A DNA stretch of 64,000 nucleotides, taken from Psammoneis japonica. Its lineage: Eukaryota. Shown piece by piece: positions 2,196-46,324 of this stretch. Made by a program: the position numbers and the translations under genes. Below the pieces are notes generated by a model, which was not told the origin of the DNA, did no database searches, and saw nothing but the letters and a program-made list of their open reading frames with translations. The DNA lies in contig QPGO01000101.1 of assembly GCA_008632985.1 (NCBI GenBank), forward strand, positions 186,001 to 250,000, read 5' to 3'. How positions within the stretch are numbered: the stretch's first letter is position 1; every line of letters starts with the position of its first letter.

Positions 2196-3559
2196 TGTGA
2201 TGAATCTTTTTCATGCTGGTCTGTGTTGGTGCGTGCATCCGCCGGCCAGGCTCATGTTGTGCGATCGATCGCGTGATGTGCGATTCACTTCGATGTGAAA
2301 GCACGTTGAATGTTGGCGGGTGCCGAGGCAGGTGTGGTCCTCTCTCAGTGACAGTGTCATTCCCACATGGACACAACACTGAGGGATGTTGTCAGTCTTT
2401 GACTGTCAACAAGCTTGTCTGCTCTGCACATTGCCTGTCAAGATGCTCTTTTGTGTTGTCTTTGTTTGAGCAGCAACTCTCTCCTCTTTGTCATCACTGC
2501 TCAAAGGTTGGGATCGTTGGAATTTTGCTTGCACAAATCGAGACAAATCGCATCACATGCCCCAGCAGGTCTTGAGCCAAATCAAGCAAATTGGGGTCTC
2601 TGCTTCACTCTTGACCAAGTGTTTGCAAACATTGTCATTTGGAGAAGTCGGTCATCTGAGACGAGGCTTGTGTGCTGCATCAAAATCAAAGAGCTTGGCA
2701 TGGTCAAACAACCCATCATTGAGTTTTTTCCACATGACTCCCTCCAGCACGTGCTTCAAGTCTGCCAACAAAACTTTGCAGTCATGTCTGCCATGTTGAT
2801 GACAGAATTTCCACCCATTTGCTTTTCTCATTTCCATCCTCTGATGAGAATCTGCCAAGAAGGCATTGCAAAATTCTCCGCCTTTTTGCAAGACCTTGAG
2901 TTTGCCCAACCGGAACCAAGCTTTTTTCAAATGCTGCTGGAAAAAAAAATTCATTTGACCCTTGGTGTTGAAACATGACATGCTTTTTCCTTGATGCTCC
3001 TCTGCCATCCCCACCCTTCTCCACGCCTCACACCACAATTTGAGCCAACTGACCTTTTGTTCTTTGAGGTCCACAACCTCTGCATTGGAAAGGTCCAATG
3101 TGGCACAAAAGTGTTTCCAAGCCCCATCTTTGCCATTCTTTGATGCTGTGGTCATCCTGCCACTCCTCTCTTTCTCAAGTGACATGACATGAGCAAGAGA
3201 AACGGGGGTGACAGACTGACCACTGAATGGACATTTTGTTCTCAAATGTGTCCCCCTGCAAAAATGGGGTCATGGGCCAGGAGTGACTTGACTGCCGCTG
3301 CTTTGAGCACAAGCAAACAGGTCAAAAAAGAGCACTTGCATGTCCTGGTGTAATTTTGCAAAGCATGGCAAGACTTGGAGAAATCTGTGTGGGAGATCTT
3401 GGTGACCTGCTCTTGGAAACTGTCTTCAATGCAAAACCATCTTTGTGGCTTCTTCCTTTTGGCACCATCTTGAGCCACAGTCTTGGCTTGCTCTTGGGGG
3501 TTCATGGCAGCAAGCTTGGCATTGATGTGCAGGCCACAAACCATGTTTGATTTCAGAAA

Positions 3560-3960
3560 TTTTAGGATCCCCCAAAATCACCAGGGCACTGGGGAGTTGC
3601 GTTGAACTTTTTTGAAAAAACCAGGGAATGAGGGCAATTTGTGGGAAGGAATGCCCAAAAGGACTCAGGGGGGGGGGACAAAAAATGTGTGGATTGTGGC
3701 AATGTGCAGCAATTCTTGGGTGTGCTTTCAGCCCAATGAGCCATCCATGTGGCACAACTGCAGGTGATTGCCATGACTGATGCATTGACACATTGGCACA
3801 AAGTGCCCCCTTGTGGCAGAGCAAGGGAAGAATTGACTTTGCCGCCAAATCCTCAGCCATGTTGACATTGCTCATGTGCAGCTCCTCTGTTTTCACACCT
3901 TGGTCTTTGCTCCAGAGCCCTTGTGGTTTGCATTTGTGATCACAGCACAATTTTGTTGGC
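3560..3960 (+). repeat. Dispersed repeat family A, copy 1
   Basis: Blocks ATGAGGGCAATTT(T)GTGGGAAGGAA, CACAAAGTG.CCCCTTGTGG and AGAGCCCTTGTGGTTTGCATTT recur at 26140-27075 (+) and 59170-59580 (-). Confidence 0.75.
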
Positions 3961-4030
3961 CACACGAGGTTCTGCTTTTGCCTTGGCCTTCACTCCAGAT
4001 GCCCAATGGTTTGAACAATCTGATTCACTC

Positions 4031-4306
4031 TGACAGAAATTGAAGGCAAATGGCAAGAATTCAAACAACAACTCCTTGCTGCTGTCTAAACAGCAGATGA
4101 GTCTCCGCTCAGAGACCGTCACAGGAGCCGAAGGACGTGCAAGTCGGCACAATCGGGCTGCTGTCATCATTCTTGTGAGCCTTGTGGCTCGAAAGCAAAC
4201 TACATCGCACGTGAACGCGCGGAACTAAAGCACACAAAACTGTGCACGGTGAACTAAACAGTGCGCGATGCTTCGCGCGCACCCAAATCCTGTTCAAATC
4301 CTGTCA
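4031..4306 (-). repeat. Copia 3' LTR
   Basis: Matches 11962-12237; preceded on the minus strand by the polypurine tract at 4307-4312. Confidence 0.95.
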
Positions 4307-4960
4307 CTCCCCAGTTTGCTTGAGGAGCCACAGAAACAGATTCGACTTCGGATGGAATGAAGTTCCAGAACATGAGGGGGCGGAGAAGGTCCCAGATTTG
4401 GGAGTGACCCCAATGCTTGCTGAGAATGTCAGCAGGGTTGCGGGAGCCTTCGATGAAGTGGAACTCAAGGTGACCAGAGGCAATTGCCTCACGCACACGG
4501 TGGAACGACAGTGCGGTGTGTCGCTTGTGCAACTTGGAGTGCGGGATGGTGGCACTGTCTACAACCGACTTGTTGTCACCGAACATGTAACTAACGTTAC
4601 GGATCGGGACGCCAAGGTGGCGCAGGGTGATGCGCAGGTCGACAATCTGCTCAACACAAGTCCTTGCGGCAACAAATTCAGACCCGCAGGTCGCAGTCTC
4701 CACGGTGGCTTGTTTCTTAGAGAACCAATCAGCCGGGAATTTGTTGAGGAAGTGGAGCATTCCCATGACAGAGCGTCCGGTGAGCATGCAATGGTGCAAG
4801 TTTGCATCGACGCAGTGGGTGGCAGTGACGAACTTGCCAAGGGGCGGTGGAGCGTCCTTCGGGATCATCTCTTCTGCTTCACCACACACGGAATGCATCC
4901 ATTCACAGGCCGGAGCAGGGAGATCCGAATGGTCAGGCTCTTCCGTGCGAATGCGGAGAG

Positions 4961-5538
4961 CACCGTGTCGCATCTTGGAGAGGCACCCACAGACGCGCTT
5001 GGCACGATCCAAGTGGCCTTGACGGGGCGCAGCTCGGAAGCTAGAGAGTGACATGACGGCCGTGGCAATGTCAATTCGACCAAGGGACACTGCCCATTGG
5101 AGTGAACCAACAAGAGACTGGAACTTGTGAATGCCATCGGGTCCCAGCAGTTCGGAAGTGTCCAGTTTGGGGTGGTCACCCTTCTCTAGAGGTGACAGGG
5201 CGTTGGTGGTGGGTTTCTCCCCAAACAGTCGGGCACAGCTGTCGACCACTCACCGTGTCGCATCTTGGAGAGGCACCCACAGACGCGCTTGGCACGATCC
5301 AAGTGGCCTTGACGGGGTGCAGCTCGGAAGCTAGAGAGTGACATGACGGCCGTGGCAATGTCAATTCGACCAAGGGACACTGCCCATTGGAGTGAACCAA
5401 CAAGAGACTGGAACTTGTGAATGCCATCGGGTCCCAGCAGTTCGGAAGTGTCCAGTTCGGGGTGGTCACCCTTCTCTAGAGGTGACAGGGCGTTGGTGGT
5501 GGGTTTCTCCCCAAACAGTCGGGCACAGCTGTCGACCA
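4961..5538. repeat. Tandem duplication (290-bp period) inside copia RT/RNaseH
   Basis: 4961-5248 repeated at 5251-5538; I see only two C/T differences. Confidence 0.95.
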
Positions 5539-8133
5539 TGCGCTCGATGTACTTGCCGGAGACAGGCACAAGGTTCCGTCGGGTTCCCGGGAAAAGTCGC
5601 AACCCAGATGGAACTCAATGGGTCCCGCACCCTTGAGCTTGAACTTGTGCTTTTCCGTGAGGGTGTCGATGAAAGATTGAGGGTCCTTCATGGCAATGGC
5701 GAGGTCATCCACATAAACGGCAATGTGTTCACAGTGGTCGCCGTTCCTGCGCATCCAAATGTCGGGTTCGGCGCGGCAGGGGAAGAAGCCTTCAGCTCGC
5801 AGGCAGTCGGCGAAGCGCTCATGCCAGCGGAGACCGGAGCTGCGCAGTCCACACAGTGCCTTGTGGATGACAAGGATGTGTCCTTCGAGTTTGCCGAACT
5901 CGGGTCCAGCTACAATGTAAAGCTTCTCCTTGGTGGTGGCTTCAAGGTGGCATTGCCAATGTCGGTGGCCCATGTCTCCAACTCGTTGAGTTCGGCCAGG
6001 AAAATCATCAGCCGAAGGCCACGGAGGGAGACTACTCCGGAGCAGACACTGTCGACAGGTGCATCCGTGAGGTGCCCGTCGGCTACGAGTCGTGCCTTGT
6101 GGCGACCGTCGTGTTTCACGTCGCACACCAGGTGCACTCGGATCTTCTTGTGTCCCGCAGGAGGAGTGGAAGACTTGAAGGGCCCGCAGTCATGGAAGAC
6201 TTCGTATTCGTCGAGTTGGTCCATCTCGAGATTGGTTGCGTCTCCCCACTTGCGGTTGCCGTTGCGTTCGTCTAGTGACATGGCGTGTTTGTAGTTCCGG
6301 GGAACTTCGCATCCACACTTGTGGCGAGGTGCAGTGCGGAAGGAGCGAAGCTTGGCTTGGTTGGCCATGCGAAATGGCTTCTTTTGGCGCCTCGCGATGG
6401 TGCGGAACCGCTTCCAGCCATCCGTGTCGAGGAGTCCGTTCTCTCGTGCATGGATGGCACAGGTGACGGGGTCGTCCTTGGCGATGATGGCAAGAGGCTC
6501 GGACGTGATCTCCTTGCTTTCCCATTCAAGCATGATGTTGTAGCTGGAGCCTTTCCAGGTTGGGTCGTGAGGCTTCAGAGGTCCTTCGTGTGACACGATG
6601 CGTCGAAATTTCCAAACAGTGGTGTCTTCGTCTTCTTGCTCAATGTGATTCATGATGTCATTGCAGGCAAGGACTTCCTCGTATTCGTCATTGTTGACAG
6701 AGCAGACGAACTTAGTGAGCTCGGGATTGCCGTTCACTTTCCATTCGTGGTCTTCGACGGCCTTGACGATGCGAGCTCTGTGGCGTTGTCCATCCTCTTG
6801 TGGCTGCATGAGGAAGGCACGTCCAATGATGTCTTGCGGATCGAAAACTGGCATCTTGGGTGTCCTGATCTCCCCATCAGGAGAGTCGACGGGGTTGTCG
6901 TCATGGCGAGATTTGATGATGGGTTCAGGTGGCTCCCCATCAGGAGGATCAAGACGCAGGTTTCGGATGGCAGGATCGGGGGCAGCGGAGCGGACGTTGG
7001 ACCGGTGGAGGATCTTCTGAGTCTCGTCAGATAGAATCTTGAAGGTCATCTGGTGGCCGACGTGCTCAGCAATGCCAACGAAGCGTCCACGCAACTCACG
7101 GGATTCGGACGGCCAATCGGAGTCATCGAGGTGGAAGCACACGGGTTCCCACCAGTGAAAGCGAAGCAATGGGCTGATGTCCGGGGTGGAGCCAGTGAGA
7201 GTCTCGAGGGGCGTGCACCAGTGGAGACGTGGGGACGCTGTGTGGTTGAGCATGAAGCACACGCACATGAGCGCCAGCAGCCATGCATGGGCGGGCGAAC
7301 CAAAACGATCCATGACAGTGTTCGCCATGCGCTTCACGGTCTGGCATCGACGCTCGGCAAAGTTTTGGTGTTGCTGGTGAGGCTCACTTTGCCAGCTAGA
7401 GATGAAGAGGGCGCGCAGGATCCCGAGCACTTTGTTGCTGATCTCAACTTGAGCACGGTCGCTAATGAGTTTGGATGGGGCACCACGTTCATGGATCTGA
7501 TCCTCGAGTGTGTTGACAAACTCTTTGTCCGTCTCAGTGCCGTAGACGTCAGTGATGGTAGACTCGGTGCCAACAAACAGTTGGGCGCTGGTGCAACCAG
7601 AGTCGACGGCTGGGGTGTCGGCATGAACGGTGTCAGTGGCGACAGGCTCGTTGCGGCGGTGCACATTAAGGGCGGGGTTGGGTGATTTGTGGGCCTTGCG
7701 AAGGTGTGTGCCGGTGGGCATGCGGGCGTACTGCGTGGTGCAGTCAAAAGTACGACGGACCGCATCGGCAGGTAGGAAGCCAAAGCAAGGCCGAAGAGAC
7801 TCGAAGGGGGGGTCCTTGGGCTGTACAGTGCGCTCCGGAGGTGGAACGTCATCGCCCTGGGGGCCAATCGCATGCAGATGACACTCGTAGAACACGTCGT
7901 CGTTCGGAATGAGGTGATCATCGAGGGCGGACGCGTGATCAGCAGACAAGGAAGCGGACATGATGGTCTCGTTGACAACGACACGATGACGGCAGTTGCC
8001 GCATTCGTCAAACAGGTTGGCAGTGGGATCGTCCTGTGGGTCAGAGATCGCGTCGCACCACTGGTCGTCGTCAGTGACAGAGTGATCGAGGACGGAAGGG
8101 TCCCATGTGTCATCACCGGTGAGGATGACATGG

Positions 8134-9753
8134 GGCAGGGTGTCCCATTCGGCGTCAGTGCAAGGTCGCATGGCAACATGAGGCAGGCCAGCCTTGATGT
8201 CAATGGGGATGACACAGCCATCAGGAGTGGCAATGCATTGCAAGCCGTTGGGCACCTTGACAGAGCGATCGTTGACATCCTGTTTGTGCCATTCGAGCTG
8301 GCCGCAGGAATGGATGGTCTTGCCCTTGCCCGTGCATGCGCACTGATGGAGCATGGCGATGACGGGACCACGCTGGGTCTCAACAAGGCGCCAGCGGTGA
8401 CAATGGGGATGTCCACCAATTGATGATCGTCAATGCCCTGAACGTCGACTTGGCGAGAGGTGCGTGCAATGACACGAACGTCGTCGCCAGCAATGCCGCC
8501 GTTGGCCCCACGATCGACTGGAGCGCCAGTGCATGTGGAGCGATGAGCGGAGCAGAGCAAATGACATTGTGGTTGTCACGCGGCGGCAAGTGCGCCGTTG
8601 AGTTCCATGTCATCTGCAGGAGCAGGCGAGGCAGAGGGAGCAGCGGATGGCCCCGGTCGACTGGCATTGGGGGCTTGGTTGGGAGACAACAGACGTTGCA
8701 GATCACCGGGTGGCAGTGGCTTGCGCTTGGTGAGGTGCGCCAGGATGGGATCATCCGAAGTGGCGTCCACATGTGGAGCGGAGTCACCAGAGTCAGCAGG
8801 AGTCGTGTTGGACAAGTTGACATCACCGTCACTCCCAAGGCGTTGGTCGTGAAGGTTGGCCGTAACAGACTCATGGCAGTTGCTGGCTCGCGGGTTGCGG
8901 GGAGGTGGACGAGAATGCTCAAGGATGATCGCCTTGGAGGTCAGGCAGGGTGTCCCATTCGGCGTCAGTGTGAGGTCGCATGGCAACACAAGGCAGGCCA
9001 GCCTTGATGTCAATGGGGATGACACAGCCATCAGGAGTGGCAACACGTTGCAAGCCGTTGGGCACCTTGACAGAGCGATCGTTGACATCCTGTTTGCACC
9101 ATTCGAGCTGGCCGCAGGAATGGATGGTCTTGCCCTTGCCCGTGCATGCGCACTGATGGAGTGTGGCGATGACGGGACCACGCTGGGTCTCAATGACGGC
9201 ACCAGCGGTGACAATGGGGATGTCCACCAATTGATGATCGTCAATGCCCTGAACGTCGACTTGGCGAGAGGTGCGTGCAATGACGCGAACGTCGTCGCCA
9301 GCAATGCCGCCGTTGGCCCCACGATCGACTAGAGCGCCAGTGCGTGTGGAGCGATGAGCAGAAGCAGAGTGAATGACATTGTGGTTGTCAATGCGGCGGC
9401 AAGTGCGACCGTTGAGTTCCATGTCATCTGCAGAAGCTGGCGGGGTAGAGGAAGCGGCGGATGGCCCCGGTCGACTGGCATTGGGGGCTTGGTTAGGAGA
9501 CAACAGACGTTGCAGATCACCGGGTGGCAGTGGCTTGCGCTTGGTGAGGTGCGCCAGGATGGGATTGTCCGAAGTGGCGTCCACATGTGGAGCGGAGTCA
9601 CCAGAGTCAGCAGGAGTCGTGTTGGACAAGTTGACATCACCGTCACTCCCAAGGCGTTGGTCGTGAAGGTTGGCCGTAACAGACTCATGGCAGTTGCTGG
9701 CTCGCGGGTTGCGGGGAGGTGGCGAGAATGCTCAAGGATGATCACCTTGGAGG
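8134..9753. repeat. Tandem duplication (about 810-bp period) covering the copia gag end and protease
   Basis: 8134-8940 repeated at 8944-9753 with many CA/TG differences and a few indels. Confidence 0.95.
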
Positions 9754-11961
9754 AATCGGGCAACGAATCCCAGAGCCGTTGGTGGTCGGGAGGGAGACGT
9801 CTCCATTGGACACCGGTGAGGCTGGGACCGCGGGTGTAGGCAGCATTGGCTTGAAGGACGTCAACGTCGCTGTCAATGTCGTAGAACACATCGTCGGACG
9901 GTTCCTCGGAGCAGACGTCGTGTGCGCACATGGCGCGTCGGGGAGCTCGAGGTGTCGTCTTGGGTTGAAACGTGCTGTCGCACTGAGCTGCCGCGGAGAG
10001 GAGCAAGCCACAGCATTGATCGCATGTGAGGCTCTTGCCACTCTGCATGCGATGCTGATCAGCTTGGTTCTTGACAGCACGGAGTTCCTCGACAGGGTGC
10101 ACGGCATTCTCGAGCATGACGCGCTTCTGTCCTTCAGAGAAGTGGTCACTGGCCGGGATGAGTGCCTTGCACTTGCGCAACTGATCTTGCCAATGAAGGA
10201 TGAACCCGTGGGTCGGACCTTTCCAAGTGCCATCACCAAGACACGCGGTGGTGAGGTGCGTGAGCAGGGTGGAGGACTCGATGGATGCGCGGGTGGAGGC
10301 AAGCGCGCACTCAGACAAGGAGCGGCAGACGGTCTGTGCGTCAGAAGACCCCACATTTTCGCGAATGAGAGCCTTGCCCTTGTCGGTGAGAAGGATGCGT
10401 TCGAAGACGGCGAACATGCACTTTTGCTGTTCAGCAAAGAGCAGTTTGTCTTCGGGGCTGGTCGGTTTGTACGACGAGTCTAGAGTGCACTCAACGTCTT
10501 GGGCACGGGCTTGTGCCACAAGTGAGGTGTGCCAAGTGTGCCACTGCTTGTCGGATTTGAGAGCCGTGAAAGCGGTGGGATCACGCTTGATGCCTCGCTT
10601 GAAGTCCCGCACCGGGTCGCGTGCCTTGGTCGGGTTGGTGACATGTGGAGGTGCAAGGGGTGAGCTGCCGATGGACACAGAAGACATGCAGTCGGGGCTG
10701 AGGCGGAAGGCAAGGAACTCGTCATGCGCAAACAAAGAGGAGTCGTTGGCAACGTCAAGACCTTTGTGTGCTTTGACAATGTACAGACTGACTGGTGCTG
10801 CTAACATGTTCTTATAACCACGGGGCAAAGGGATTGCATCAGTGCCGTTGTCGCACTCAAGCGAGTCGATTTGGGACGGCATGAACGTGAATGGTTCCTG
10901 ATGCGAGTCCGTGCCGTCTTGGGCCAAAGCCAAACGAAGAGGACTCCCAGCACCTTGGGCAGGCACGGTTCCAACCACGTGCTCGAAACCATCGGTTTGT
11001 TGCTGACGAGTGAGAACCATGACAGACAAAGGTGGTGTCAGGACAATCAATTCTGGTTGGGAAGCGAAGGTAGACTCGAAACTTGGGTGAGAACAGACTT
11101 GACTTGAAATGGACTTGACTTGAAATCTTGAACTATCTTAAAATCAGAAGTCGCCGGGCTTTGTCATCCCGTTCGTTGTCAAGTGCTAAACTTCCCATCC
11201 GGTCCGTAGAGTTGTGCCGGCACGTCCGAACCCGCAGCTGGCGGCGCTTTGGGTTGCTTGCAAGCGGAGTAGCGGGTTGTAAACCCCTGCAGGTGAGCTG
11301 ACCAGAGGTGGACAAGACCCCCGAACCGTTCTCATTTTATGTCGGTTGGATTTCCCGATCAGGCTGGCCAGTTGACGTGGGCGTCAGGCGCTGTGGACGA
11401 ACGAACAAACGCGGGAAAGCACCCTCGCCCCAACACAGGCTGTAATCACGGCTGCCTGCTCTCACAGTCGTCCTCGTGGACCTGGCAGAACTGCAGAGCA
11501 CCAGCAGTCCGGGGTAGATCAGGTGCAATGGACTCGGTGTGCTTGTAGAGTGGTGGCAAAACCGCAGTCCGAAGAGTGGACAAAGGTTCTTGGCCGTGAA
11601 GATGTGTGTGCATGTGCACATGTCTTCAGCGACTAAGATCCTTGAATGTGCAGGGTTCTTGACCGTCAACCGAGGAACAGGCATGTCAAGGGATGTTGAT
11701 CAAGGACAGACTTGGATGTGACCGTTGAACACAAGTCTTCAGCGATCAAAGGTGGCACAATCAATCCAGACATCCAGCGGTGAGGAGACTTGACGGTGAT
11801 GTTAACTTCCTGCCGATGCCCTGGCATTGAATGCGCGTAGACTTGCCGATGTATGTAGAATGTATACGGAGGTCCACGTAGAATTGAAATAGCGTCGTTG
11901 GTAAATCAACGACGACGATGGCGGTTGCTCAATGGGTTGACAATGAGCAAGACTGTCAATC

Positions 11962-12237
11962 TGATAGAAATTGAAGGCAAATGGCAAGAATTCAAACAAT
12001 GACTCCTCACTGCTGTCTAAACAGCAGATGAGTCTCCGCTCAGAGACCGTCACAGGAGCCGAAGGACGTGTAAGTCGGTATAATCGGGCTACTGTCATTA
12101 TTCTTGTGAGCCTTGTGGCTCGAAAGCAAACCACATCGCGCGTGAACGCGCGGAACTAAAGCACACAAAACTGTGCACGGTAAACTAAACAGCGCGCGAT
12201 GCTTCGCGCGCACCCAAATCCTGTTCAAATCCTGTCA
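11962..12237 (-). repeat. Copia 5' LTR
   Basis: Matches 4031-4306; retains more TpA than the 3' LTR. Confidence 0.95.
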
Positions 12238-12242
12238 CACTC

Positions 12243-15200
12243 TGCACGTGTGACATGCATCAGTTGGAAGAAAAAGCATGGTTGTTCAACCTGCCATGTT
12301 TTCACCAGCCTTGTGAGCAACACTGCTTTTGCAGCTGTGGACACCACATGTCTTGTGTTGCACTTGTGACTGTGCAAACAAAAGAGCAAGTGAAAAGATC
12401 GGTGCACCAGTTTTCTGAACACAATCCATCACACTTTCATTTCATCTTTTCTCTTGTGCTGTGGATCACAGCAAAGCAGCATCCCTCGCCAACACGTTGA
12501 TGGCGCTGTTGTCATTTGACAAAAGCCATCATGGGGGAGCTGCCAATGCGACATGCACACAAGGAAGTGGTGCTCATGGCAACTCCTCAGGAGCTCCCAC
12601 TTCCTGCATGAGAGCATGGCAAAAGGTGGCAAGAATCACAGGAATTTTGGAGAGTCCTGCAGCAAAACCAAGCCAAGGCATGGTGGCAGTGACTCAAGCT
12701 TGACTTGGTCAGTTGTGCACTGAGTGACTGTGGTTCCCACAAATGACAAAAGTGAGATGACAGCGAAGTTTGCTGGCAGCACATGCACTCCTTCTTTTTT
12801 TGACAGATCCAGTGCTGATGGTGGTGGCCCACTCCAGAGTGGGGCAACCAAAAGTGTTGCCTGACCAAGAAGCTCAATGCACTGGGTGGCTGCACTCTGG
12901 ACACCCTGTGGCAACTTTGCTGTCTCTCAAGAGCTGTCACCCCCTCTCCCTGGTGTCAAGATGCACTCTGAACTTCTTCTCCAGAAACCCAACAAAATTT
13001 CTCACCAGCATCAGATCAGCTTGGGTGAGCCTGCACAGCTTGCCAAAAGTTGTTTGAAAGCAAGTCAGGCTGTGTGCTGCTTGCACCAGCTCCCACTGCA
13101 ATGGGATTTTTGTCAACACCTGGTGCGCTTCTCCGACGTGTTTGTTGTTGGTGTGCACAGAGATGTTGGCCACACAAGAGGTTCAAGGATTTGCCTGGGC
13201 TGTTTGTCCCATTGCTTTTCCTGAGAAGAGTTGAGAAAGCATTTGGCACCAGCCTCAGCTTTTTTTAATCAACAACAGGTGCAAGATGGGGGGCATTGAG
13301 AGATTCCTGAGATCACCTGAAGATCATTGCCTTGTCTCAGATTTGCGGAAATCTTTCAAAAAAAGACTCGTGAAATGTGCACAAAAATTGGTTGAGAACA
13401 CCAGCAAAATCTGCGTGTCACTGCACCAAAGCTGTTGTCTTGGTTTTCACAGTTTGTGCAAAAGCAGACTTGACCATTGTCTGAACCGGCACACTGTTGC
13501 AAGTGTGGTTTTGCAAAATGCACCCGATCAGATGACTGTCAAGTCCATTTTCTACAAAGACAAAATTTCACCATCATGGAAGACAGACAGACAATTTGAT
13601 GTTTTTCTCAGCACTGGTCCACACAATTGCTGTGCAATTGCTCTGCACAGAGCATGAGAGCAAAGGTTGTCATCTGCAATGTTGCAGGTCCCTCCTGCAG
13701 TTGATCTCTTTTTTCTCAGACCCCAGCCCATTGGGGCATGTGATCCATGGCAAGGAGAAAGTTTAGAGCACAGCACAATGCACAGTGCATGGCACAGAAG
13801 AAAAATGCCATTCCAGCATCTGCACATTTGAGGAGACAAGTGCCTCAGCTGCAATTGACAAGCTTTGTTGAATGGTTCATGGGCGCAGCACAAGCAGCTT
13901 GACTTGAGCCAGAAGTGCATTTTGGGTGGAAAGAGACAACAGACAAGTGAGAGAGCAGTGGCTTTCTTTGAAGAAGGAAGAATGATCACATGATCATGCT
14001 CATCTGTGCAGGCTTCATCTTGACCACATTGTGAAAGAACAGCCAACAGGAAGCTCAGGGATGCTGTTTGACCTCAAAGCAGAGCACACCAGCTGGATCC
14101 TTCTGTGTGTCTCAAGCCACTCTGAGCATGACATCATTTTTCCTTTCTTTGGTGCAAGCCCCAATGTGCCAAACAAACGTGTTTTTTAAACTGCAGCTCC
14201 ACAATTCTTTGGCAGCCACCCACCAAGAAACCCTGCGTGTGTTTCTGCATGCGCTCTCGCACGAATGCCGCAGTGAACTCCAAGCGTCATTGTGCTCTCC
14301 GAACCAACTGTTTCCATTGGGCATCTCCTCAGGGAGATGTCAAGATTCAGGCCAATCTGCCACATTCCACTTCTGCCCCACCCCTTGCAGGGTGTGCCGG
14401 AGGTGTGGGTCAGCTGGTGCCGGCATTGCTGGGCAAAGGTGCAACAGCACTTTTTGTTTTTTATTTTTTTTTTAACTGCTGCAGCTCCATCACCAAAAAA
14501 AAGAGACCAAACATCTTTGACTGAGCAAGCATTGCTCTCTTAATGTCATCAATGCATCAGAACCAATTCGAACTTTCTTGCTGTGAGGAGGGCTGAAAAG
14601 GTGCTGTCAACTGCCCTTGCTGGCATGAGCACTTGTTGCTTGAAATGGGCAGTTGTGAGCAAGGCAAAGGGCAGCCCATGGGAGTGACAAAGATTGGCAA
14701 TGCCACAGCAACCATGGCTTCATTTGCACACTCACCTCTGGCTTTTGGCTGGCCAAAAGTGGTGTGCCACCCTCCCAGAGCTGGCTGAGCAGGCAATGAC
14801 AATTGACGAGATTGTGTTTGGACACTTGGCCAGGCAGATCCAGGGGCACTGCTGCTGTGCTGTCACTTGGCCAATGAAGCAGCTGCTGATGTTTCATTGA
14901 CCTTGGTGACTGCACCTTCAATGGCAGCTGATGCTGGTGTCTCTTGGCTGCCATGCCGTGCTCTCTTGCTTGCAAAGAGTGCAGCCCTTGATGCCACTTG
15001 GCACAGTTGCTGGGGATCTTGTTGATGCTGCAGGGTCTCAATGTGCATTTTCTTCATCTCAGAGAGATGGGTGCTTTTTCTTCACATCAAGATGTTTGCA
15101 GGACAGCAGGCTGTGGCCCTCCTCATCATTCCCACCCTTCTCGTTGGCGTCATTTTTGGCCATCGTCAACCTGCCTCGTGATCCCCAACCTCGTTGCTTG

Positions 15201-15980: not shown

Positions 15981-18754
15981 ATGAGGGTACCAAACTGGAT
16001 CGTCGCTTACCCATGTCTCGTGACTCTTGCCTCTGCTCAGCGATTCAAGGAAGGCTGCCATGATCGCTACGAAATGTCGTGTGAATCGAGAGGGCAGGTG
16101 TTTGATACGACGACAAGTCCTGAAGACATTTGCACGAGACTCGGTCTAGAGGTATTTCCCAGCGAGGATATCCTTCGGAACCCAGAGCAACATGCCGGGT
16201 TTCTGAACAGTTTGGACGCCGACGACGAGTTCTGTAAGGCCATTCAGCAGGTCTATCACCAATGTATCTTTTGTGCTGACGAAGATACGATTGACGAATG
16301 CGTGACAAACGCTAGATGGGTCAAGTGCGGGGACCAGCCATCCAAAGAAGAGATCCTTGCCAGCGACGACTATCCATCCTTTCAGACCGAGGCTGATATT
16401 AATCAAACATGTGCTCAACTCGATGCCGCGTTTGCTTTGGACGAGTTCATGAAAGATGTCAACTGGGGCATCCCGTCCACTATTGATCTCTGCGAGAAGC
16501 AGACGCTGATGAAACACTTATGCCCTGACCAATGCCTTGGAGGGTGTTTCGACGGGCCCTCAGGAAGAGCCCCTACTGCGAGCCGCATCCAGGTCCAGCC
16601 ATGAATTTGAGTAAACCGGCGTGGCGCATTTGTGATACGCTGGACTACGACTACTTGTTTTGGATGGGTCTTGAAGAAATGTTGAATATCTCGAATCATC
16701 AAGACTATCTCAAGAGCATAACCGGTAACACAACCGAGTGCGAAGAATCTCAGCGCGCCTACTCGGAATGCTACTGGTGCGCAACGGATCGCTGCTTCAA
16801 CGACGAGCATCCAGTGTCCTGTGACGCCCCCGACTACGTGGATGACTCCCTCAATGCGCATGAGATCTGTGAAGTACTCTATAGTCCCATTCATAACAAG
16901 CTTGAAGATGGATCGAGGGACTTCTACAACATTTCTCTTCACGCTGATGCGTTGTACTTTGGGTCAAACAACTCATTCTGTGACATGGCTCAGCAAGTGT
17001 ACCACAAGTGTTTGTTTTGCCACCAGACTGAATATGTGGAAGGGTTTTGTTCCGTAGGTTCATGGTGCGAGTCAACGGCAACCATTCCCGATGACTTTGT
17101 CTTACCACCTGGCTTTGAAGCTTTGAATCTGTCTGCTCCCGAGGGGTTGGATTGCGACCAGATTTACGACCTGTGGGAAGAGATATGGGAAGACCCGTAC
17201 ACCCTACCCGGCTGCTACCGAGACATTTGGGTTCATCGGCAGTGCTCAGAACGGTTTTGCAACTTCAAACCAAATGAATTGAACGAAGACTACCTTGGTG
17301 CCGACACGGCCAACAAGAGACGGGCTCTGGCATGGACGTCAAGAGCTGCTGCAATCTTGTCGTTTTTGGGCGCTGGCTACATTATGAAGGTAACACTCTC
17401 AGACCCCAAGAACGGTCTTTGGTCTATTATCGCTTTTGTTTGCAATGGCTGTGTTTGATATCGTCACCGCAGCTGCCTGGGCTTTTGCAACGGTTCCAAT
17501 CAACAAAGACACAGCTGACCATGTGTACGGAGCCGAGGGGACCGAGGCAACTTGCACAGCGCAAGCGTTCTTCATTCAGCTCGGGTTCACGTCGGTCTTT
17601 TACAATGTCTCTTTGGCAATCTACTATGTTATGGTTATTGCTTACAACAAGAAGGAGTTTCAGCTAAAGAAGATGCAATGGTTCTTGCACGGTATCCCTC
17701 TCTTGTTTGGGTTGGGACTGGCCCTAGGTGCTATTCCAATGTATCGTTCGATCGAATATGGTTGTCATCTTCTTCCTCCACCGGATGGTGATTTGTGGGC
17801 GGTCTTGGTATTTGTGGTGTGTCCACTGGGATTCTCGATTGCGGCCATTACGGCCGCCAATCTCGTAGTGTATTGTAAGGTGCGACAGCAGGCAGCAAAA
17901 GCCAAGAAATGGCAGCTCAGTGGAGGCCACATCAGGTCACTTGAAGCTGACGTGTTTTGGCAATGTGTATTCTACACTCTGGCTTTCTACATTACATGGC
18001 CGATACTCTTCAGCGTGTACTTGGTACGTGAGGCGTGTTTTGTTGACGCTCTCACGATATACACCATTCTAATTATTTTTGAAATGTCTTCTGCTAGGCA
18101 TCAGTGGATGTGAGCGGACCGTACGGATTGGCCGTGGTTGTGGCATTTGTGGCTCCATTGCAAGGATTCAACAATTTCCTTGTCTTCGTCAGGTTACGAG
18201 TTAAAAAGTACATGAAAAAACATCCTTCCCGATGCCCGTCTTTCTCATCGTTGTGCCGTATAAGTCTTTTCAGAAAGGCCAGAAGGGAAGAATCCAATGC
18301 TAACGAGCTTGACGAGAGCCCGAGGAATGACGAAATCAATGATTCTCCCTCGCCGCATCAGCGGTCAGAAGTTGTATCGCAGGACGACTCTTATTCAGGC
18401 AACTTTGTTGTGCAACTGCCCAATGGCGAGATGCAGACGCTGGAGCATGATAATGATTTTGATCCCTCTGCTCTTCTGCCCCTTCGTACTTTAGAATCCG
18501 AAAGCGAACATACCGCAAGCGATGTAACCAAGAGCGAATCTATCGGATTTGGTTTACCCAAGAGCGAATCAATTGCGTTTGATGCACCCAAGAGCGAACA
18601 ACCAATTGAAAGCGATGTAACCAAGAGCGAACAGCCAATTGAAAGCGATGTAACCAAGAGCGAACAACCAATTGAAAGCGAGCAGCCTATTGAAAGTGAT
18701 GTAACCAAGAGCTCACTCACCAAGAGCGATCCCTCCGAAAGCGAACTCCCTTAA
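15981..18754 (+). CDS. 7TM GPCR-like receptor with signal peptide, Cys-rich repeated ectodomain and acidic repetitive tail
   Basis: Signal peptide MRVPNWIVAYPCLVTLASA; repeated C-x-Q-VYHxCxFC modules; TM region with TCTAQAFFIQLG...YNVSLAIYY, QCVFYTLAFYITW, PLQGFNNFLVFVR (cAMP-receptor/Git3-like class). GT-AG intron 18024-18097. Frameshifts near 16570 and 17400-17435, probably assembly indels. Confidence 0.85.
18515..18745 (+). repeat. Coding tandem repeat (SDVTKSEQPIE, 33-bp unit) in the receptor C-terminal tail
   Basis: AGCGATGTAACCAAGAGCGAACA(A/G)CCAATTGAA repeated with variants. Confidence 0.9.
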
Positions 18755-20101
18755 GTGATCACAGCAGGATTGAACCGTGTCACGATTTTGAATTTCCTTT
18801 TCCCCACCCTCTCTCACTGTATACCCCCATTCAGTGCGGCGAAACATGTACATAGATTGAATTGTAAATTAGTTTGTAAATACCATTCATTTGATTTTGA
18901 CCTGCTGGAAAAATTCAGAACCACCAGAAAACTGCCTATACGGTACGAAAAACAAATAGCTCCTGCCCCCGTTCAAATCCTAAAACAAAGAGAATACCGC
19001 AACTGTCACAAGCGTTTCGAATTCCACACAATAGAAAGCTGCAATACAAGATGAGAAACGAGGAAAATGGCCAACATACGACAAATATCTGGCAACCGGC
19101 AATCGTAATCGAATGCATCAAATGCGGATTACTTCCAAAGTCGATCATTTATACCTGAAAATGAATGGCAGCAACGAATCCCGCACACTCATCGCCTTGC
19201 AGGTTAATTATAATGGGATTGAATCACGAAACGAAGAAATTGAAATCAAAAGTTGAGCGCGGCGACCTCATTTCGCCGACGAGCACGCCTCTTAAAGATG
19301 CATGTGACAAAACAACAAAACAAGTCTGACACATTCCTGTTGAAACAACGCGAAAAAGAAGTGAGAAAGTAGGACGAAAGGACATTGATCCATGGCCGAC
19401 GCCGCAAATCCCATCCGTCCCATCATGGTGTCTTGCCGTTGTTGCTTCGGACTTCGGATGTATTGCAGAATGAGTCGTTCCACGACCAAACTGTACATGA
19501 TTCAATACCACTTCAAGTCGTGTTTGATCGTGCGTTGAGTTTTGAATAACTCAAATGAAGTCTGTATAAATCAATGCATCGAGTCGTTCCACGACCAACC
19601 TTGTAGATTCAATGCCGTTTCAAGTCGTGTTCATTTCTTGCGTGTTTGTCCACCTGTCTGTATGATACTGACGTTTGCGTTGTTCTCACGCAAACACGTG
19701 CACTTTCATTTGACGCCACGTCATCACGTGCGTTTCGCGCGGGAATCTTTGTACTTTTTCTACATAATTCTACATACATCTTTCTACGATGGATTCTACT
19801 GAAAAAGGTTCAAATTTTCGACTGTCCTCCACTCACTTTTTGAAGCCGACAGCCCTCCACCACGCAAAAAGATGTACGTACTGTTACCACGTGACTCTAC
19901 CTGATATCTACATGTGATTGGACTGTGTTGATTCGTGTGCGTCGATATACAGTATTGCATTGCGTCATCTTCTTGACCAACTGTTCGTTTGTCTCTCACG
20001 CCACCACTTTGTCTGCCACTTAAAACAGTCAATCAGTTGTTGCTGTTTGTTGTTTTGTTGTTTACCTCTTTGTGTTGAAACAACTACATCAAGAATCAAA
20101 A

Positions 20102-21578
20102 ATGATCTTTACTCGAATTACCGTTCTCTCCATGGTGGCAACCGTCATGGCTGCAGATGCTCTCATGACCAATCCCGTCAAAACTGATATCAAGACAAAT
20201 CTTCCGTAAGTTTTACCATTTGTATAAAGCCTTGTGTGCTCTTGATAATCACGCTCTGCTCGGAATAACTCTCCGCAAGTGTGTCTGAACGATAGTGTCC
20301 TTTCTAACGCAGCTCTCCCAATCTCTACTTTTTGTGTTTTTGTTATAGTTTGAAAGATCGCGCCTATGTAACTCGCGATATCAAGACCCCCGATCCTGTT
20401 CCCGTCGAGGGTCAAGAAGAGGCATTGGAGTTGATGCAATCGGGTCGATTGTATCGGTACAACATTGGTCCCAACGAGGAGAGTGTTGTTTCGAAATGTG
20501 AAGTCGAGATTGCAGCCTACACGGGACACAAGTATTGTGTTGCACTCAATTCGTGTGGTTCCGCACTCATGCTTTTGCTCAAAACGACCGGTCTAAAGCC
20601 GGGTGGTAAGGTATTGAGCAATGCCTTTACCTTTGGTGCTGTACCCAGTGCGATTGAACACGCCAATGGCAAGGCTGTTTATGTCGAATCCAATATGGAT
20701 ATGGTGATTGATCTACAAGACATGGAACTCAAGTTACAAGAGAATCCCGATTGCAAACACGTTTTGTTATCCCATATGCGTGGTAAGCTTGCCGATATGA
20801 GTGCCATCAAGGCGCTGTGTGACAAGTACGATGCCATTCTTCTCGAAGATTGTGCCCACTCGTTGGGTGTCCGTACAAGGACGAGCACAGTGGTCATGTC
20901 GGTGTGGCGTGTGCCATTTCGTCTCAATCGTACAAAATGATCAATTCCGGGGAAGGCGGATTCCTCTTGACGGATGATCCCGTGATTGCCGCCAAGACGG
21001 CTGTCTATGCCGGTGCGTACGAAGCGCTCCATGGCAAACACATTACCGTGCCGGGACCGGAATACTTTGAAACACTCCCCACCGAGATTCCAAATTATTC
21101 ACTCCGCATGAGCAATCTTGCTGCCGCTGTGATTCGTCCTCAAATCAAAACGTTGGATGAACGTATCGAGAAATACAATGCTCGATACTACCAGTTAGAA
21201 AAGACCATGCAAGACAAAATGGGCAACCATTTGAGTATTCCCCAACTATCCAAGGGTGTGACACGAATGGTTCATGATTCGTTTCAATTCAATTTGGATT
21301 CCAAGTTTACACCCGAAATGGTGGAAGAATTCTTGGTGGAATGCAAGGATCACGGTTTGCCCGTGGAATTGTTTGGACACCATTCCAATGCGAGAAATTT
21401 TGTCAATTGGGGATTTGCACCCGCCGACCAGCCTCTTCCCAAAACGGCAGCCATGCTTTCAAGGGCATGTGATGTACGATTACCACTCATGTGGGATGAT
21501 GAAGACTTTGATGACATGGCCAATGTATTGATGGAAAGTCTTGAAACCGTCATGGCAAAGCATGGTATTGAAAACTAA
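20102..21578 (+). CDS. DegT/DnrJ/EryC1/StrS-family PLP-dependent aminotransferase with N-terminal targeting peptide
   Basis: CVALNSCGSAL, AFTFGAV, LLEDCAHSLG, SSQSYKMINSGEGGFLLTDD, NYSLRMSNLAAA. GT-AG intron 20206-20348 restores the frame from ATG 20102. One-base frameshift near 20873. Confidence 0.92.
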
Positions 21579-22087
21579 TTGAGGTTTGTGTTTTTCTTTC
21601 TGCGACATTTTTGTGGAAGAGGGACCGGTGCAAAATGCATTTGTTGGCATGCTTGCGCAAACTCACTAAACATGAATAGAGCTACATATTATCATCATCA
21701 TTGTCACGAGCTTTCTTTGCGTCTGCATTCTAGAGTAAAGAAAGTATTATTGATGCATATGTAGAGAGATGTATTGACTAACATGGCTAGTACAGCGCAT
21801 ATTCCGAATTTGTGTATCTCACTAGACATATAGAGCTACATATTGTTGTCAATCATCATTAAAAGCTATGTTTGCGTCTGCATTCTAGTAGACAGGGCAT
21901 TATTTGTGCATCTATCGGTCGACGAAGAACTATTCGCGTACGAGAGTATGCTAACATGGCTTGTAGAGAGCTACTATTGTTACATCCTAATTACAAACTC
22001 TCTCGAAGCACTCTCTTTACACCTTTTCTAACTCGGTCGATATATCTACAGAACTGTTTCCGGAAACAACGCACCAATATTACAAAC

Positions 22088-23320
22088 CTATCGTTTTCGA
22101 TCCTGTTGCTGCGTCATCCACCGCCAATCGCAATAGTTCGAGTCGGCAGCCATATTCTCAAAGGCCTCTTCAATTTCAACTTTGTTGTACACATTGACGA
22201 GAGCGCTACTGTGCTTGCGAATGTTAATGCCCTTGTTGCTCATTTCGTCAAGGATAATTTGTTCCTGCGGCTCGATTCCCCACCCCAAAAGCAGAGATTT
22301 CCAGTCGGCCAAGCTCTTGTTGAAATCGTTGGAATACATTTCGGAATATTCGAACGCCTCGAGACTTTCAAGCGCAAGCTTTGGGTACTGGGGGATGATC
22401 TTTCCGCTCCGAATCATTGCCTCCTCCAGTTGGTCTACCAAGTCTTCGGCTTCTACCGCACCTTTACAGCCCCACGTTTCAACCAATTCGTGCGTTTCCC
22501 TTTTAAAATCTTTAATGTCAATCTTGGCATAGGTCTTGGATTCGGGAAAATGGCGCCTATGAAAACAAAGAGAGGACTGGTACCGTTTTCAAACACGGGA
22601 TAGTGTTTCAGGTAGTCCCGTTGAAAGCAATCTCGAATCCTACACACTGTCCTCTCAAGCAGATTCCTTCGGTAGATCAGAACGAAGCGAGCATCAAACG
22701 ACATGAGCGCAGAAGCAATACCCTCGGAGAATTGATGATCAAGGATCTTTGGCATCATGACTTGAGACGATTCTCGGCGACGGGCATGTAATTGTCAATG
22801 ACAAACTGAGCATCAGCCTTGACCTTGTTTTTCTCGCCAAGCTTTCATCGTAGAGCTTCACGTACTGTTTGTTGTTTTCGTTCAATTTGAACATTTCGCC
22901 TCGAGTTCCGTGCGGGTCCAACCCCGTATGGCGCTCCACAAGGGTCTTGACAAATCGAATGAGAAAGGTTGAACCAGAACAGCTTCTCGTCAGCAAAACC
23001 AAGGGTGGGATTCTAACGTTTTCAACAACCTGTTGGCCGGCTTTGCGTGTCGCCTTGGCCTTGCACATGTGGTCTACGTCCTTTTGATAAATCCATAGCA
23101 GTGTGAAAGAGTACAGCAACAAAAGCAAAGAACCGAGCAACCATCGTCGCTTTTGCAGACCGCCGCCACTTGTCGATGCCGACGAATCATCGTTTGGTTT
23201 GTCAATGAGCTTCTCGATTTCTTCATCATCGTGCTCATTGCCAAGGCTCTTCTTCGAAGTGGTGTCCTTCTCTCCATAGCAACTAAGCTCGGAGTTCTGC
23301 CTCATTTCCGGCTTCATCAT
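22088..23320 (-). CDS. Type II membrane sulfotransferase-like (P-loop) protein, paralog 1
   Basis: Single N-terminal TM helix; PAPS-loop-like LVLLTRSCSGSTF and 3'PB-like FVLIYRRNLLER; split over several ORFs by frameshifts near 22800, 22630 and 22490. Confidence 0.65.
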
Positions 23321-24129
23321 TCTATGAGGGGGTGCAGCACTTTGTTTTATGGTGTGACGATCTCACAAACTGACGGATGCACCCCGTTTTTCTCTGTAGG
23401 GTTTTGTCGCACACAAAATGTGGTGGCTCGAACATTTATGTCGTACGAGTTCTACGACAGAAAACAATATGATAGACAATCAACACTTATGGGTTGAGCA
23501 AGGCAAAACTGTTTCATTTATTGGAAATAATACATAATTAGGGGTGTTAAATGCAATAGTTTGTCATTGTAAATTATGACATATATATTGTGTTACCAGT
23601 CATATTGTTGGCGTTTTGGCGGTCATTTGATTTAAAAGTGTTCGCCGGGCATTACAAATAGCATTATATAATTTTTAAATTTGTCATACTCTCTAGAGCC
23701 TCAAATTTTCACCTGGAGCCGAAAGGACCAAACAGGATAGCCTCCTCGTACTGTATGCACAGGACGTACTCTCTAGTAGCTACTCTAGAGGGCTACATGA
23801 AGTAAATGCTCTTTCTTTGATCAAGCGAGGCTCTACTTACCGTACTTCTATTAAGCTGAAATGGCTCTAGGATCAACAAGTTTCTCCGAGCACCACGAAA
23901 AAAGAGGTGAAGTTTTGACTAAGGATGTGGTGCATCATTGGCTCTAGAGATCACCACACGTAATTTCAAGAAGTTCATCACGTAACAAAGCATGGTCTTT
24001 CGTTTCAACACCAACAACGTATAATTGGTGTATGAGTACAGCAACCTGTAAAATCCAACGTGACTTGTAGCATACGAGCGATCTTGAATGCGCCTGCAGC
24101 TTAGCTGCAAGACATTAGAACAAGTCAAA

Positions 24130-25307
24130 TCACAAAGTTTCCAGATCCATGTTGTTGCGTTGCTTCATCATCCATCGCCAATCACAATAGCTTGCATTAT
24201 CAGCCCATTGAAAAATCACGTCCTTTGTTTGGCGCTTGTTGTATATATTTTTCAACACACTTGAATGCTTTCGAGTCCCTATACCGGTCAGCCGCATTTC
24301 ATCCAGAATAATACCTTGCTGCGGTTCAATACCCCATCCTAACAGAAGAGCCTTCCAATCTTCCAAACTCTTGTTGAACTCGGAAGAAAACTCGGACGAA
24401 TATTCAAACGCCTCGAGGTCTTCCAGGGCGAGTCTAGGGTGATGCTTTGTAAGTTTCTTGCCATTCTCGAGTATGGCTTGATTCAAAAGATATTCCAGAT
24501 CCGCCGATTCGATAGCACCTTGACAGCCCCACGCTTTCACCAAATTTGTTGCTTCCTTGTCAAAATCTGCTTGGTCAATAAAGGCAAGCGTTTTCACATT
24601 CTTGTAATGCCGTCGATCAAAACAAAGGTCCGATTTGGTACCGTTTTCAAACACGGGATAGTGTCCTCTGTAGGTTTTTTTCTCAAAACAATCTCGAATC
24701 GACAGACGCGTCGTTCTAGGAGATTTCGTCGATATGTAAGTATGAAACGAGCATCCAATTCAAATAGCTCAGCCGCAATACCCGGTCGGAACTGATTGCC
24801 CGACAATACTTTGGGAACCATGACTTGAGATGAATTCCGGGAAATTCGGTTGTACACATCTCGCACCATTTGTCGATCCGCAAGGTACTTGCTCGTTTTG
24901 GCAAGACTGGAATTATACTCTGTTTTGAATGGTAATGTTGCATCGCTTTGTAGTATCTTGAACGTTTCGCCCTGAATCACAAACGGATCCAATCCTGAAT
25001 GACGCTGTACGAGCCTCTTGGCAAATCGAATGGAAAACGAACTACCGGAACAGCTGCTTGTGAGCATCACCAAGGGTGGAAATAACGTCGTTGTATAGTT
25101 GTTGATGTTCTTTTCATCATGATGATATCCACGAATCACAATTTCTTTCTTGATTTCGTTATTGTTACTCTTGACAGAGGATGGCGTCTCTACACGATCC
25201 ACCACGGAGAACCAGAACAATACAAAGGCCAACACCAACAATGTCACTGCAGATATTCTTTGAGAGGGCATACTATACAATGACTTCTGTGATTTTCGCT
25301 TAAACAC
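24130..25307 (-). CDS. Type II membrane sulfotransferase-like protein, paralog 2 (tandem duplicate)
   Basis: LVMLTSSCSGSSF, FILTYRRNLLERRVC and a C-terminus (LEAFEYS...WKALLLGWGIEPQ...YCDWRWM) shared with paralog 1; frameshift near 24690; start codon uncertain. Confidence 0.65.
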
Positions 25308-41549: not shown

Positions 41550-41928
41550 TGCAACATGCGTTGTCATGTGCGCATTGTGTGTGCATGTCCACATGTTAAA
41601 TAAAAGTGTGTTTCAATCGCACGTCAATCGTGGGTTCGTACGAAGTGCAGATCAGTCACACAGAAGTGATCGGATGTGGAGAATCGCAAATGCGATCGTA
41701 CGATGATGTTGACATCTCATGTGTCAATGTCAATCGCATCCGGACAATCTGTCGTCACGATCACATTCTCCGAAAGGCCTTTTGTCTGCAGGAGCAGTGC
41801 AAAAGGTTTGGGCTGTTGAGAACCCGTTCGGAGAAACCCAAAATGATTGCGCAGAAATAATTCTCATAATTTTCACCTTTTGAACTTCGTTCTACTTTCA
41901 TTTGCACTCGTTCTTCGAGCACAGTGCA
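41550..41928 (+). repeat. Gypsy 5' LTR
   Basis: Matches 46325-46703. Confidence 0.95.
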
Positions 41929-41964
41929 TTGTGTGTACACACCACAGAAGGCAATGAGTTCAAG

Positions 41965-46298: not shown

Positions 46299-46324
46299 CT
46301 CTAATGTGCAGTTGGGGAGGTGAA

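Follow-up and report, generated by a model that had tools for sequence, protein, structure and literature searches.

What kind of mutation separates the two long terminal repeats (LTRs) of a single retrotransposon when they differ by transitions only? The question is raised by a 64,000-nucleotide stretch of contig QPGO01000101.1, called the window below, in which a Ty1/copia-type element lies on the minus strand between positions 4031 and 12237. The reading that we favour, at a probability of about 0.7, is that this is a recent Ty1/copia insertion in a transposon-rich domain of a diatom-like genome that is under targeted TpA hypermutation. The parts of the element, including its open reading frames (ORFs), and the short repeats bordering it are as follows.

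4026 to 4030: target-site duplication, left copy, CACTC, identical to 12238-12242.
4031 to 4306, minus strand: left LTR (3′ LTR by element orientation), 276 bp, with 4 TA, 18 CG and TG...CA ends, delimited by sequence comparison.
4307 to 4330, minus strand: putative polypurine tract adjoining the 3′ LTR (..AAACTGGGGAG on the minus strand).
4257 to 5249, minus strand: C-terminal piece of the pol ORF, RNase H region, with Cys or His in conserved Tyr columns (alignment to full-length homologues).
4961 to 5538: internal tandem duplication of 288-290 bp (4961-5248/5251-5538) with 2 mismatches, both CG vs TG.
5476 to 6189, minus strand: piece of a copia-type reverse transcriptase ORF, RVT_2 (Pfam E = 3.8e-14).
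5913 to 8429, minus strand: 839-aa ORF, putative integrase region and start of the reverse transcriptase (alignment to copia-type polyproteins).
8134 to 8940 and 8944 to 9753: internal tandem duplication of about 810 bp (811 bp) with 31 mismatches, including 7 reciprocal CA/TG doublets.
9332 to 11137, minus strand: gag-side ORF, 602 aa, without a Pfam family.
11962 to 12237, minus strand: right LTR (5′ LTR by element orientation), 276 bp, with 10 TA and 20 CG.
12238 to 12242: target-site duplication, right copy, CACTC.

Ungapped comparison of 4031-4306 with 11962-12237 revealed 14 mismatches and 0 gaps over 276 bp, which corresponds to 94.9% identity and 5.1% divergence. A preliminary description of the locus had counted 14 differences, all transitions within pyrimidine-purine (YR) steps, and no transversions or indels; all of this was borne out (14/14). 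The classes that it distinguished were recovered as well. TA faces CA or TG at eight sites (LTR positions 4, 110, 118, 120, 130, 138, 171 and 221), CA faces TG in reciprocal doublets at positions 39-40 and 47-48, and CG faces CA or TG at positions 179 and 232; the examples quoted earlier, GGTATAAT vs GGCACAAT and GCTACT vs GCTGCT, are present in the LTRs. Only 52% of LTR positions lie within a YR step, and 12 of 12 independent events fall there (P = 4e-4), with 0 changes elsewhere. Three TAs survive in both LTRs, all of them in CTAAA. A model with about 16 ancestral TAs and a loss of about 0.5 per copy expects 4 shared, 8 single and 2 reciprocal sites; 3, 8 and 2 were observed.

The two reciprocal doublets could also be explained by ordinary decay of methylated CpG, with an ancestral CG at 39-40 and 47-48 lost on different strands and the loss of TA being a separate matter. 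However, 18 CpGs are retained in both LTRs against 2 single losses, and under these conditions a double loss is expected about 0.03 times (S squared over 8H). The LTRs themselves offer few means to polarise these sites. No third LTR copy is present within the 64-kb window, two YR-degenerate LTR patterns gave 0 matches in collections of metagenome contigs and viral contigs, and in the LTR-spanning ORFs, the only long frames there, CA/TA and TG/CG encode the same residue at both doublets. By analogy with the coding parts of the element, the ancestral state at the two reciprocal sites would be TA.

In the coding parts, homologues provide an outgroup. The 839-aa ORF was compared with 18 homologues of ordinary Tyr content. 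It keeps Tyr in only 2 of 10 conserved-Tyr columns, the others being occupied by Cys (4), His (2), Trp (1) and Thr (1), while the conserved residue is kept in 213 of 244 other columns (Arg 16/17, His 5/5); the Tyr contrast has P = 6e-6. When four ORF pieces were aligned with 30 homologues, Tyr was kept in 3 of 32 fragment-columns (12 Cys, 6 His), some pieces being misaligned. Overall Tyr content is 0.5-0.7% in transposon ORFs vs 3-4.4% in homologues, and His and Cys make up 3.4-5.6% each of the transposon ORFs.

Individual codons could be followed in read contigs of the same family. Residue 703 is Tyr in 13/16 homologues and TAC at 81% of family depth, and it is CAC in the window copy. Residue 796 is Tyr in 14/14 homologues and TGC in the window copy; about a quarter of the family depth has T at the first position and 12% has G at the second, giving about 13% TAC and 12% CAC if both changes co-occur, as they do in the one X2 contig. 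CpG decay was polarised in the same way. Residue 313 is Arg in 15/18 homologues and CGT at 100% in the family, and reads CAT (His) in the window. Among the read-contig matches listed, at least eight window-specific CG-to-CA/TG changes, this one included, are polarised by the family majority and support the CpG explanation.

The duplication of 811 bp made it possible to ask what preceded a doublet, as 5 of its 7 reciprocal doublets fall in alignable ORF. The residues in the two copies and in homologues are given below.

Residue 48: His / Cys; homologues Tyr 6, Phe 6 of 16.
Residue 84: His / Cys; homologues Tyr 11, Arg 3 of 16.
Residue 90: Cys / His; homologues Pro 8, Tyr 4, Phe 2 of 18.
Residue 26: Met / Thr; homologues Ile 8 of 16 (ATA).
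Junction of residues 65-66: Cys-Ile / Arg-Val; residue 66 in homologues Ile 11, Val 1 of 16.

A CG ancestor would call for Arg, Thr or Val, and at all five these residues are missing or form the minority. These doublets point to a TA origin because their columns (5/5) hold Tyr or another aromatic residue, or Ile, and not Arg, Thr or Val. In the coding parts, outgroup and family states together show a direction from TA to CA or TG.

The preliminary description had proposed that the comparison be repeated on other LTR pairs. Within the window the same pattern was found in a second LTR pair and in six further repeat pairs. The second pair and a three-copy repeat are located as follows.

41545 to 46703, plus strand: Ty3/gypsy-like LTR element (protease, RVT_1, integrase H2C2, rve) with intact ends, LTRs at about 41545-41928 and 46321-46703.
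53650 to 56548: 617-bp unit in three copies (53650-54266, 54267-54883 and 55932-56548), used for three-way polarisation.

The gypsy-like LTRs differ by 21 mismatches, namely 7 CA/TG doublets (14 bases), 4 CG, 1 TA and 2 transversions. Separately, a 4-bp GAAG apparently flanks this element. Summed over the eight repeat pairs of this stretch, of which three overlap at 53-57 kb, the counts are 40 TA vs CA/TG, 51 reciprocal CA/TG doublets, 108 CG vs CA/TG, 42 transversions and 23 other transitions. The CG class is thus the most frequent, which favours the CpG explanation and shows that CpG decay is a real second process. Sites shared across pairs number 19 for TA vs 257 for CG. If CpG is lost uniformly, at a p of about 0.17 per copy, about 6 of the 51 doublets are expected; a near-saturation TA model accounts for most of them. 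In the 617-bp unit CA, TA and TG occur together at 4 sites and CA, CG and TG at 2, and the third copy holds CG at only 2 of 18 CA+TG sites. Since the majority of CpGs survive and the majority of TAs are lost, CG should be the usual state of the third copy under a CG origin.

Flanking sequence provided a further distinction. The observed-to-expected ratio (o/e) of TA, computed over the TA-poor 45 kb, is lowest in ATAT (0.01), GTAT (0.03), ATAC (0.04), CTAT (0.04) and ATAG (0.06) and highest in CTAA (0.25) and TTAA (0.32). Flanks with 5′C/3′G were found for 3/31 doublets vs 263/639 shared CA/TG (P = 2.5e-4) and 24/79 CG singles (P = 0.027). This avoidance fits the context ranking of TA loss, that is, a TA origin of the doublets in susceptible contexts, and the doublets are unlike CG singles in this respect. 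Taking the coding columns, the flanks and the LTR counts together, we regard a CpG origin of the reciprocal sites as unlikely.

Relative rates, which are not per generation, were taken from six non-overlapping repeat pairs. The loss per copy is about 0.70 for TA and about 0.13 for CpG, and background change is 0.0069 per site. TA sites therefore change at about 174 times and CpG at about 21 times background per site, with TA about 8 times faster than CpG. The earlier suggestion that the process is far faster than background mutation thus holds, and a fast, TA-destroying transition process is supported by composition, Tyr loss, the reciprocal sites, the three-copy repeat and these rates. Since the copia LTRs show 0 changes outside YR steps, their 5.1% divergence greatly overstates the age of the element. 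GC-biased gene conversion was also considered as a source of the changes and is ruled out, as few A/T-to-G/C changes lie outside TpA (non-YR transitions of every kind number 23).

The process is regional. TA o/e for the window as a whole is 0.27 (1107 TA steps against an expected 4026), and CA and TG stand at 1.42 and 1.46. In stretches of transposon and debris TA o/e falls to 0.02-0.3 and CA/TG reaches 1.4-1.9, against a TA o/e of 0.46-0.73 in three host-gene islands. The depleted stretches comprise the copia element, the Ty3/gypsy-like element, a Helitron-like ORF, tandem repeats and unannotated debris. A 1-kb map revealed a patchy deficit with sharp borders between depleted and normal stretches, lying at about 16, 25.5, 28.5, 32 and 60 kb. 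The islands of near-ordinary TA content are as follows.

16000 to 25000: o/e 0.48-0.72, host-like ORFs including a DegT-type aminotransferase at 20308-21575.
28500 to 32000: o/e 0.47-0.73, TIR and ankyrin ORF at 28711-31494.
60000 to 63000: o/e 0.46-0.60, EF-hand/DUF445 gene at 60874-62457.

At codon junctions, where TA is largely silent, o/e is 0.56-0.67 in three host ORF stretches and 0.28 in the second DegT piece, vs 0.11-0.32 in transposon ORFs. Because the contrast between host and transposon holds at these largely silent positions, it is due to targeting and not to selection keeping TA in genes. The Helitron-like ORF at 47683-49947 on the minus strand (DUF6570, Helitron_like_N) has a Tyr content of 0.5%, with His and Cys at 5.6% each; as it is Tyr-poor and His/Cys-rich, TA loss reaches a DNA transposon too. 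Stop triplets in the window number 287 for TAA, 251 for TAG and 1349 for TGA, so that the first two are about five times rarer. There are 81 stop-to-stop frames of at least 150 aa in the 64 kb over all six frames, most without a family match; these long open frames in non-genic DNA follow from the depletion of TAA and TAG.

Such a distribution raises the question of artefact. Base-calling or assembly error at modified TpA, or ADAR-like UA editing of RNA before integration, might be expected where modification or double-stranded RNA is expected, and the signal is indeed strongest in repeats; Tyr-to-Cys changes (12) also exceed Tyr-to-His changes (6) on the sense strand, though not significantly. 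Against this, host genes keep conserved tyrosines (the host DegT protein retains every one), and their TA content at silent positions is close to ordinary. Over the TA-poor flank at 3500-3934 a read contig that was built separately agrees throughout, with 0 other letters, and DNA other than retroelements is depleted as well (Helitron-like ORF, tandem repeats, low-copy flank). A blanket base-calling artefact is ruled out by the intact DegT tyrosines, the matching read contig and host silent-site TA. Through reverse transcription, edits made in RNA before integration cannot make the two LTRs of one insertion differ; here they do differ, and pre-integration RNA editing is therefore excluded. In sum, an origin of the signal in artefact or RNA is highly improbable.

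The mechanism that we propose is as follows. An intact-ended, internally broken Ty1/copia-type element would have inserted recently on the minus strand of a domain in which TA is converted to CA or TG, equivalent to A-to-G on either strand. The likely chemistry would be deamination of adenine by an enzyme or, with equal likelihood, modification of thymine to a form mispairing with G; the two give the same duplex changes and are indistinguishable here. TA preceded by A or followed by T (ATA/TAT) is hit hardest, and CTAA and TTAA least. Because the process nears saturation, one ancestral TA would often be struck independently in two copies, half the time on opposite strands, and opposite-strand hits at one TA would therefore yield doublets with CA in one copy and TG in the other. 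CpG, presumably methylated, decays to TG/CA in the same domain as a slower companion process. What the sequence shows is the pattern, the direction in the coding parts, the regional targeting and the relative speed; an enzyme, a chromatin or RNA signal guiding it and a TA ancestor at the two reciprocal LTR doublets are what we infer.

Several observations weigh against this reading. Homogeneous two-hit models under-predict doublets about twofold, and for the gypsy LTRs 0.1 was expected and 7 were seen. This shortfall needs heterogeneity among sites, of which flanking context appears to be the cause. Where CA and TG occur together in tandem arrays that are older, the third state is CG four times and TA 0 times (a third set was set aside, one copy being mis-oriented), and these four, like the two CA+CG+TG sites of the 617-bp unit, favour the CpG explanation. 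The direction at the 14 LTR sites is assigned by analogy alone. The TA state lies in the right LTR at 7/8 single TA sites (binomial P = 0.07), and five changes are packed into 29 bp of one LTR. Neither the skew nor the cluster is predicted by simple independent decay, and they suggest a burst, conversion along a tract or an effect of the assembly. The last two sites of concern are LTR position 4, where TGACAG in the left LTR exactly mirrors the CTGTCA end, and internal site 4593, where the window has TA and the family has TG at 80%, that is, the opposite polarity.

The cluster bears on the possibility that the LTR differences were imported, either by ectopic gene conversion or by assembly and polishing that mixed about a thousand near-identical copies. 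Summed read-contig depth is 20,000-190,000 over the copia element vs roughly 60-300 in the flanks, indicating roughly a thousand or more copies of the family in the source reads, and 1803 contigs fit two places. At 3637 and 3853 the assembly departs from read contigs by single-base indels, and one of the host genes has a frameshift of 1 nt. On the other hand, the second LTR pair and tandem duplications of low copy number have the same spectrum. Imported variants would still be products of the TA and CG processes, so the spectrum stands even if the dating fails. Import as the source of the differences seems to us quite unlikely.

The two sites of opposite polarity bear on a cytosine process resembling repeat-induced point mutation (RIP), under which CA/TG would be ancestral and C-to-T at CpA would have created TA in one LTR. 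Because TGACAG mirrors the CTGTCA terminus, position 4 may have been C originally, with C-to-T in the right LTR in the opposite direction to that proposed, and site 4593 fits such a process too. RIP changes C to T at CpA, enriches TpA and creates stop codons. In the window, by contrast, repeats stand at a TA of 0.02-0.3 of expectation, Tyr codons are lost and not gained, and TAA and TAG are the rare stops. A RIP-like origin is accordingly most improbable, and we return to targeted TpA hypermutation for comparison with known systems.

Fungal RIP does offer a parallel in that fast, context-specific transitions limited to transposon-rich DNA ruin coding capacity. The process seen here differs in that TpA is destroyed, two of the three stop codons are removed, the damage is missense (Tyr to His/Cys, Ile to Met/Thr) and approximately single-copy flank is depleted too. 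CpG decay of methylated transposons has its counterpart in 2/12 LTR events, in the 108 CG differences over the pairs, in the polarised cases and in a CG o/e of 0.1-0.4 in debris. It cannot remove TA, however, and proceeds more slowly at each site here. ADAR and APOBEC footprints in animal retroelements are likewise clustered transitions of the deaminase type. Those enzymes act on RNA or on intermediates of reverse transcription, which are copied into both LTRs, whereas here the LTRs differ and non-retroelement DNA is affected.

The closest likeness is to Bigelowiella natans, as described in a preprint (Mettrop et al., bioRxiv 10.64898/2026.01.13.699255). In mutation-accumulation lines of that organism 230/231 mutations in two viral insertions were A>G/T>C and all of these lay at TpA; the rate was about 6e-7 per site per generation, the mutations arose in some lines only, and the genome bears a trace of TpA loss with CpA+TpG gain (bioRxiv 10.64898/2026.01.13.699255). 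An ADAT2-like deaminase is put forward there as the cause, as a proposal only, and ADAR is quoted as preferring U before the edited A (bioRxiv 10.64898/2026.01.13.699255).

The two cases agree in several respects. Both involve only transitions of TA to CA/TG; in the window A>G/T>C at TpA is seen in coding parts from outgroup and family states, and at LTR sites by analogy. In both, foreign DNA is targeted regionally with ordinary rates elsewhere, and codon-junction TA o/e together with the sharp edges shows such confinement to foreign or transposon DNA here. The rates exceed background by orders of magnitude (about 174x in the window), and long-term TpA loss is accompanied by CpA+TpG gain. Reverse-transcriptase and DDE Pfams are, moreover, enriched among the low-TpA genes of B. 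natans. The hosts differ, B. natans being a chlorarachniophyte and the present host diatom-like. So do the targets: viral insertions there, and here LTR retrotransposons, a Helitron-like ORF, tandem repeats and debris over most of 64 kb. Depletion is deeper here (o/e down to 0.02 vs 0.45 in the B. natans viral region), and de novo mutations were measured in B. natans, whereas the present case is known from standing sequence only. The ATA/TAT flank preference, the reciprocal doublets from near-saturation and the accompanying CpG decay appear here but not in the preprint, and a term search of it found no mention of LTRs, retrotransposons, diatoms or trinucleotide context. Our literature search found TpA-specific hypermutation described only in this preprint, and nothing on diatoms or retrotransposons. 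The comparison suggests that the window is a new instance of the recently described targeted TpA hypermutation, on retrotransposons in a diatom-like genome, and that the process is far more pervasive than in B. natans, reaching LTR retrotransposons, repeat debris and a Helitron-like element.

A wider interpretation, to which we would give an even chance, is that diatoms, or this lineage, have a genome defence that is RIP-like but of opposite chemistry, a near-saturating A-to-G editing of TpA that is targeted to transposon-rich chromatin, is strongest at ATA/TAT and disables elements by missense instead of stop codons; together with Bigelowiella it would represent an old defence shared by stramenopiles, alveolates and rhizarians (SAR). 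A defence of this kind, if real, would work quickly enough to set the LTRs apart while an insertion is still very young. If shared TpA editing in SAR is real, it would be a major hidden shaper of repeat composition, LTR-based dating and gene calling in these genomes. In genomes of this type YR steps must be masked before LTR divergence can serve as a clock. Gene callers are misled, as TA loss removes TAA/TAG and leaves dead DNA with long open frames, and searches for protein domains lose power as Tyr and Ile codons erode.

The assignment of the element to Ty1/copia is based on direct LTRs with TG...CA termini, 5-bp CACTC on both sides and a reverse transcriptase match to PF07727 at 5476-6189(-) (53.3 bits, cutoff 31.6, E = 3.8e-14), a family that relatives carry as well. 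Copia-type polyproteins can be aligned with the 839-aa ORF over its whole length, and the ORF has a sub-threshold RVT_2 match of 18 bits at residues 757-829. No Pfam integrase family was matched at E<=0.01 in the ORFs of the element, nor was any Pfam family at that threshold in the C-terminal pol piece at 4257-5249. A purine run, GGGGAG, abuts the 3′ LTR. A tRNA-complementary primer-binding site was not recognised beside the LTR; Rfam and tRNA scans of the window were empty, so that no tRNA was at hand for comparison. The 839-aa ORF has 11979 database relatives at E<=0.001, the best named one being from the diatom Fistulifera solaris (56%). Protein search did not find copies of the same family, the best identity being 60-65%. 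Some relatives are themselves Tyr-poor (P0160, P0200, P0258 and P0262).

The copy in the window is defective, with its pol region spread over several frames and two internal tandem duplications. Read depth is approximately halved over both duplications (8134-9753 and 4961-5538), which suggests that most family members carry these segments once and that the duplications are private to this copy or subfamily. One read contig (depth 70) joins 4015 to 12251 and omits the whole element; it may come from an allele that lacks the insertion or from a paralogous site without it.

The host genes, together with long intronless ORFs, look like those of a diatom-like genome as far as their sequence relationships go. 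With few exceptions, the named relatives of the EF-hand/DUF445 gene belong to diatoms (Seminavis, Cyclotella, Thalassiosira, Stephanocyclus and others) and share 51-59% identity with it; the best matches overall are at 65%. A protein atlas yielded no taxon. The closest relatives of the DegT-type aminotransferase are at 85% and a Polarella match is at 58%. This match first raised the idea of a dinoflagellate host, which we reject because no spliced-leader relic was found in the window and the EF-hand/DUF445 gene indicates diatoms; the link of 5-hydroxymethyluracil to dinoflagellates is accordingly not counted as specific support. The aminotransferase frame shifts by 1 base at 20866-20880, after ...CAHSLGV, where homologues stay in frame, indicating either an assembly indel or a pseudogene. 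At 28711-31494 on the plus strand a single-exon ORF of 928 aa with a TIR domain and ankyrin repeats occupies a TA-normal island between two TA-poor stretches. Finally, an open frame of 797 aa at 33106-35496 on the plus strand has weak CesT and ankyrin matches and a TA o/e of 0.11-0.21 in all codon phases; it may not be a functioning gene of the host but a decayed or a foreign one.

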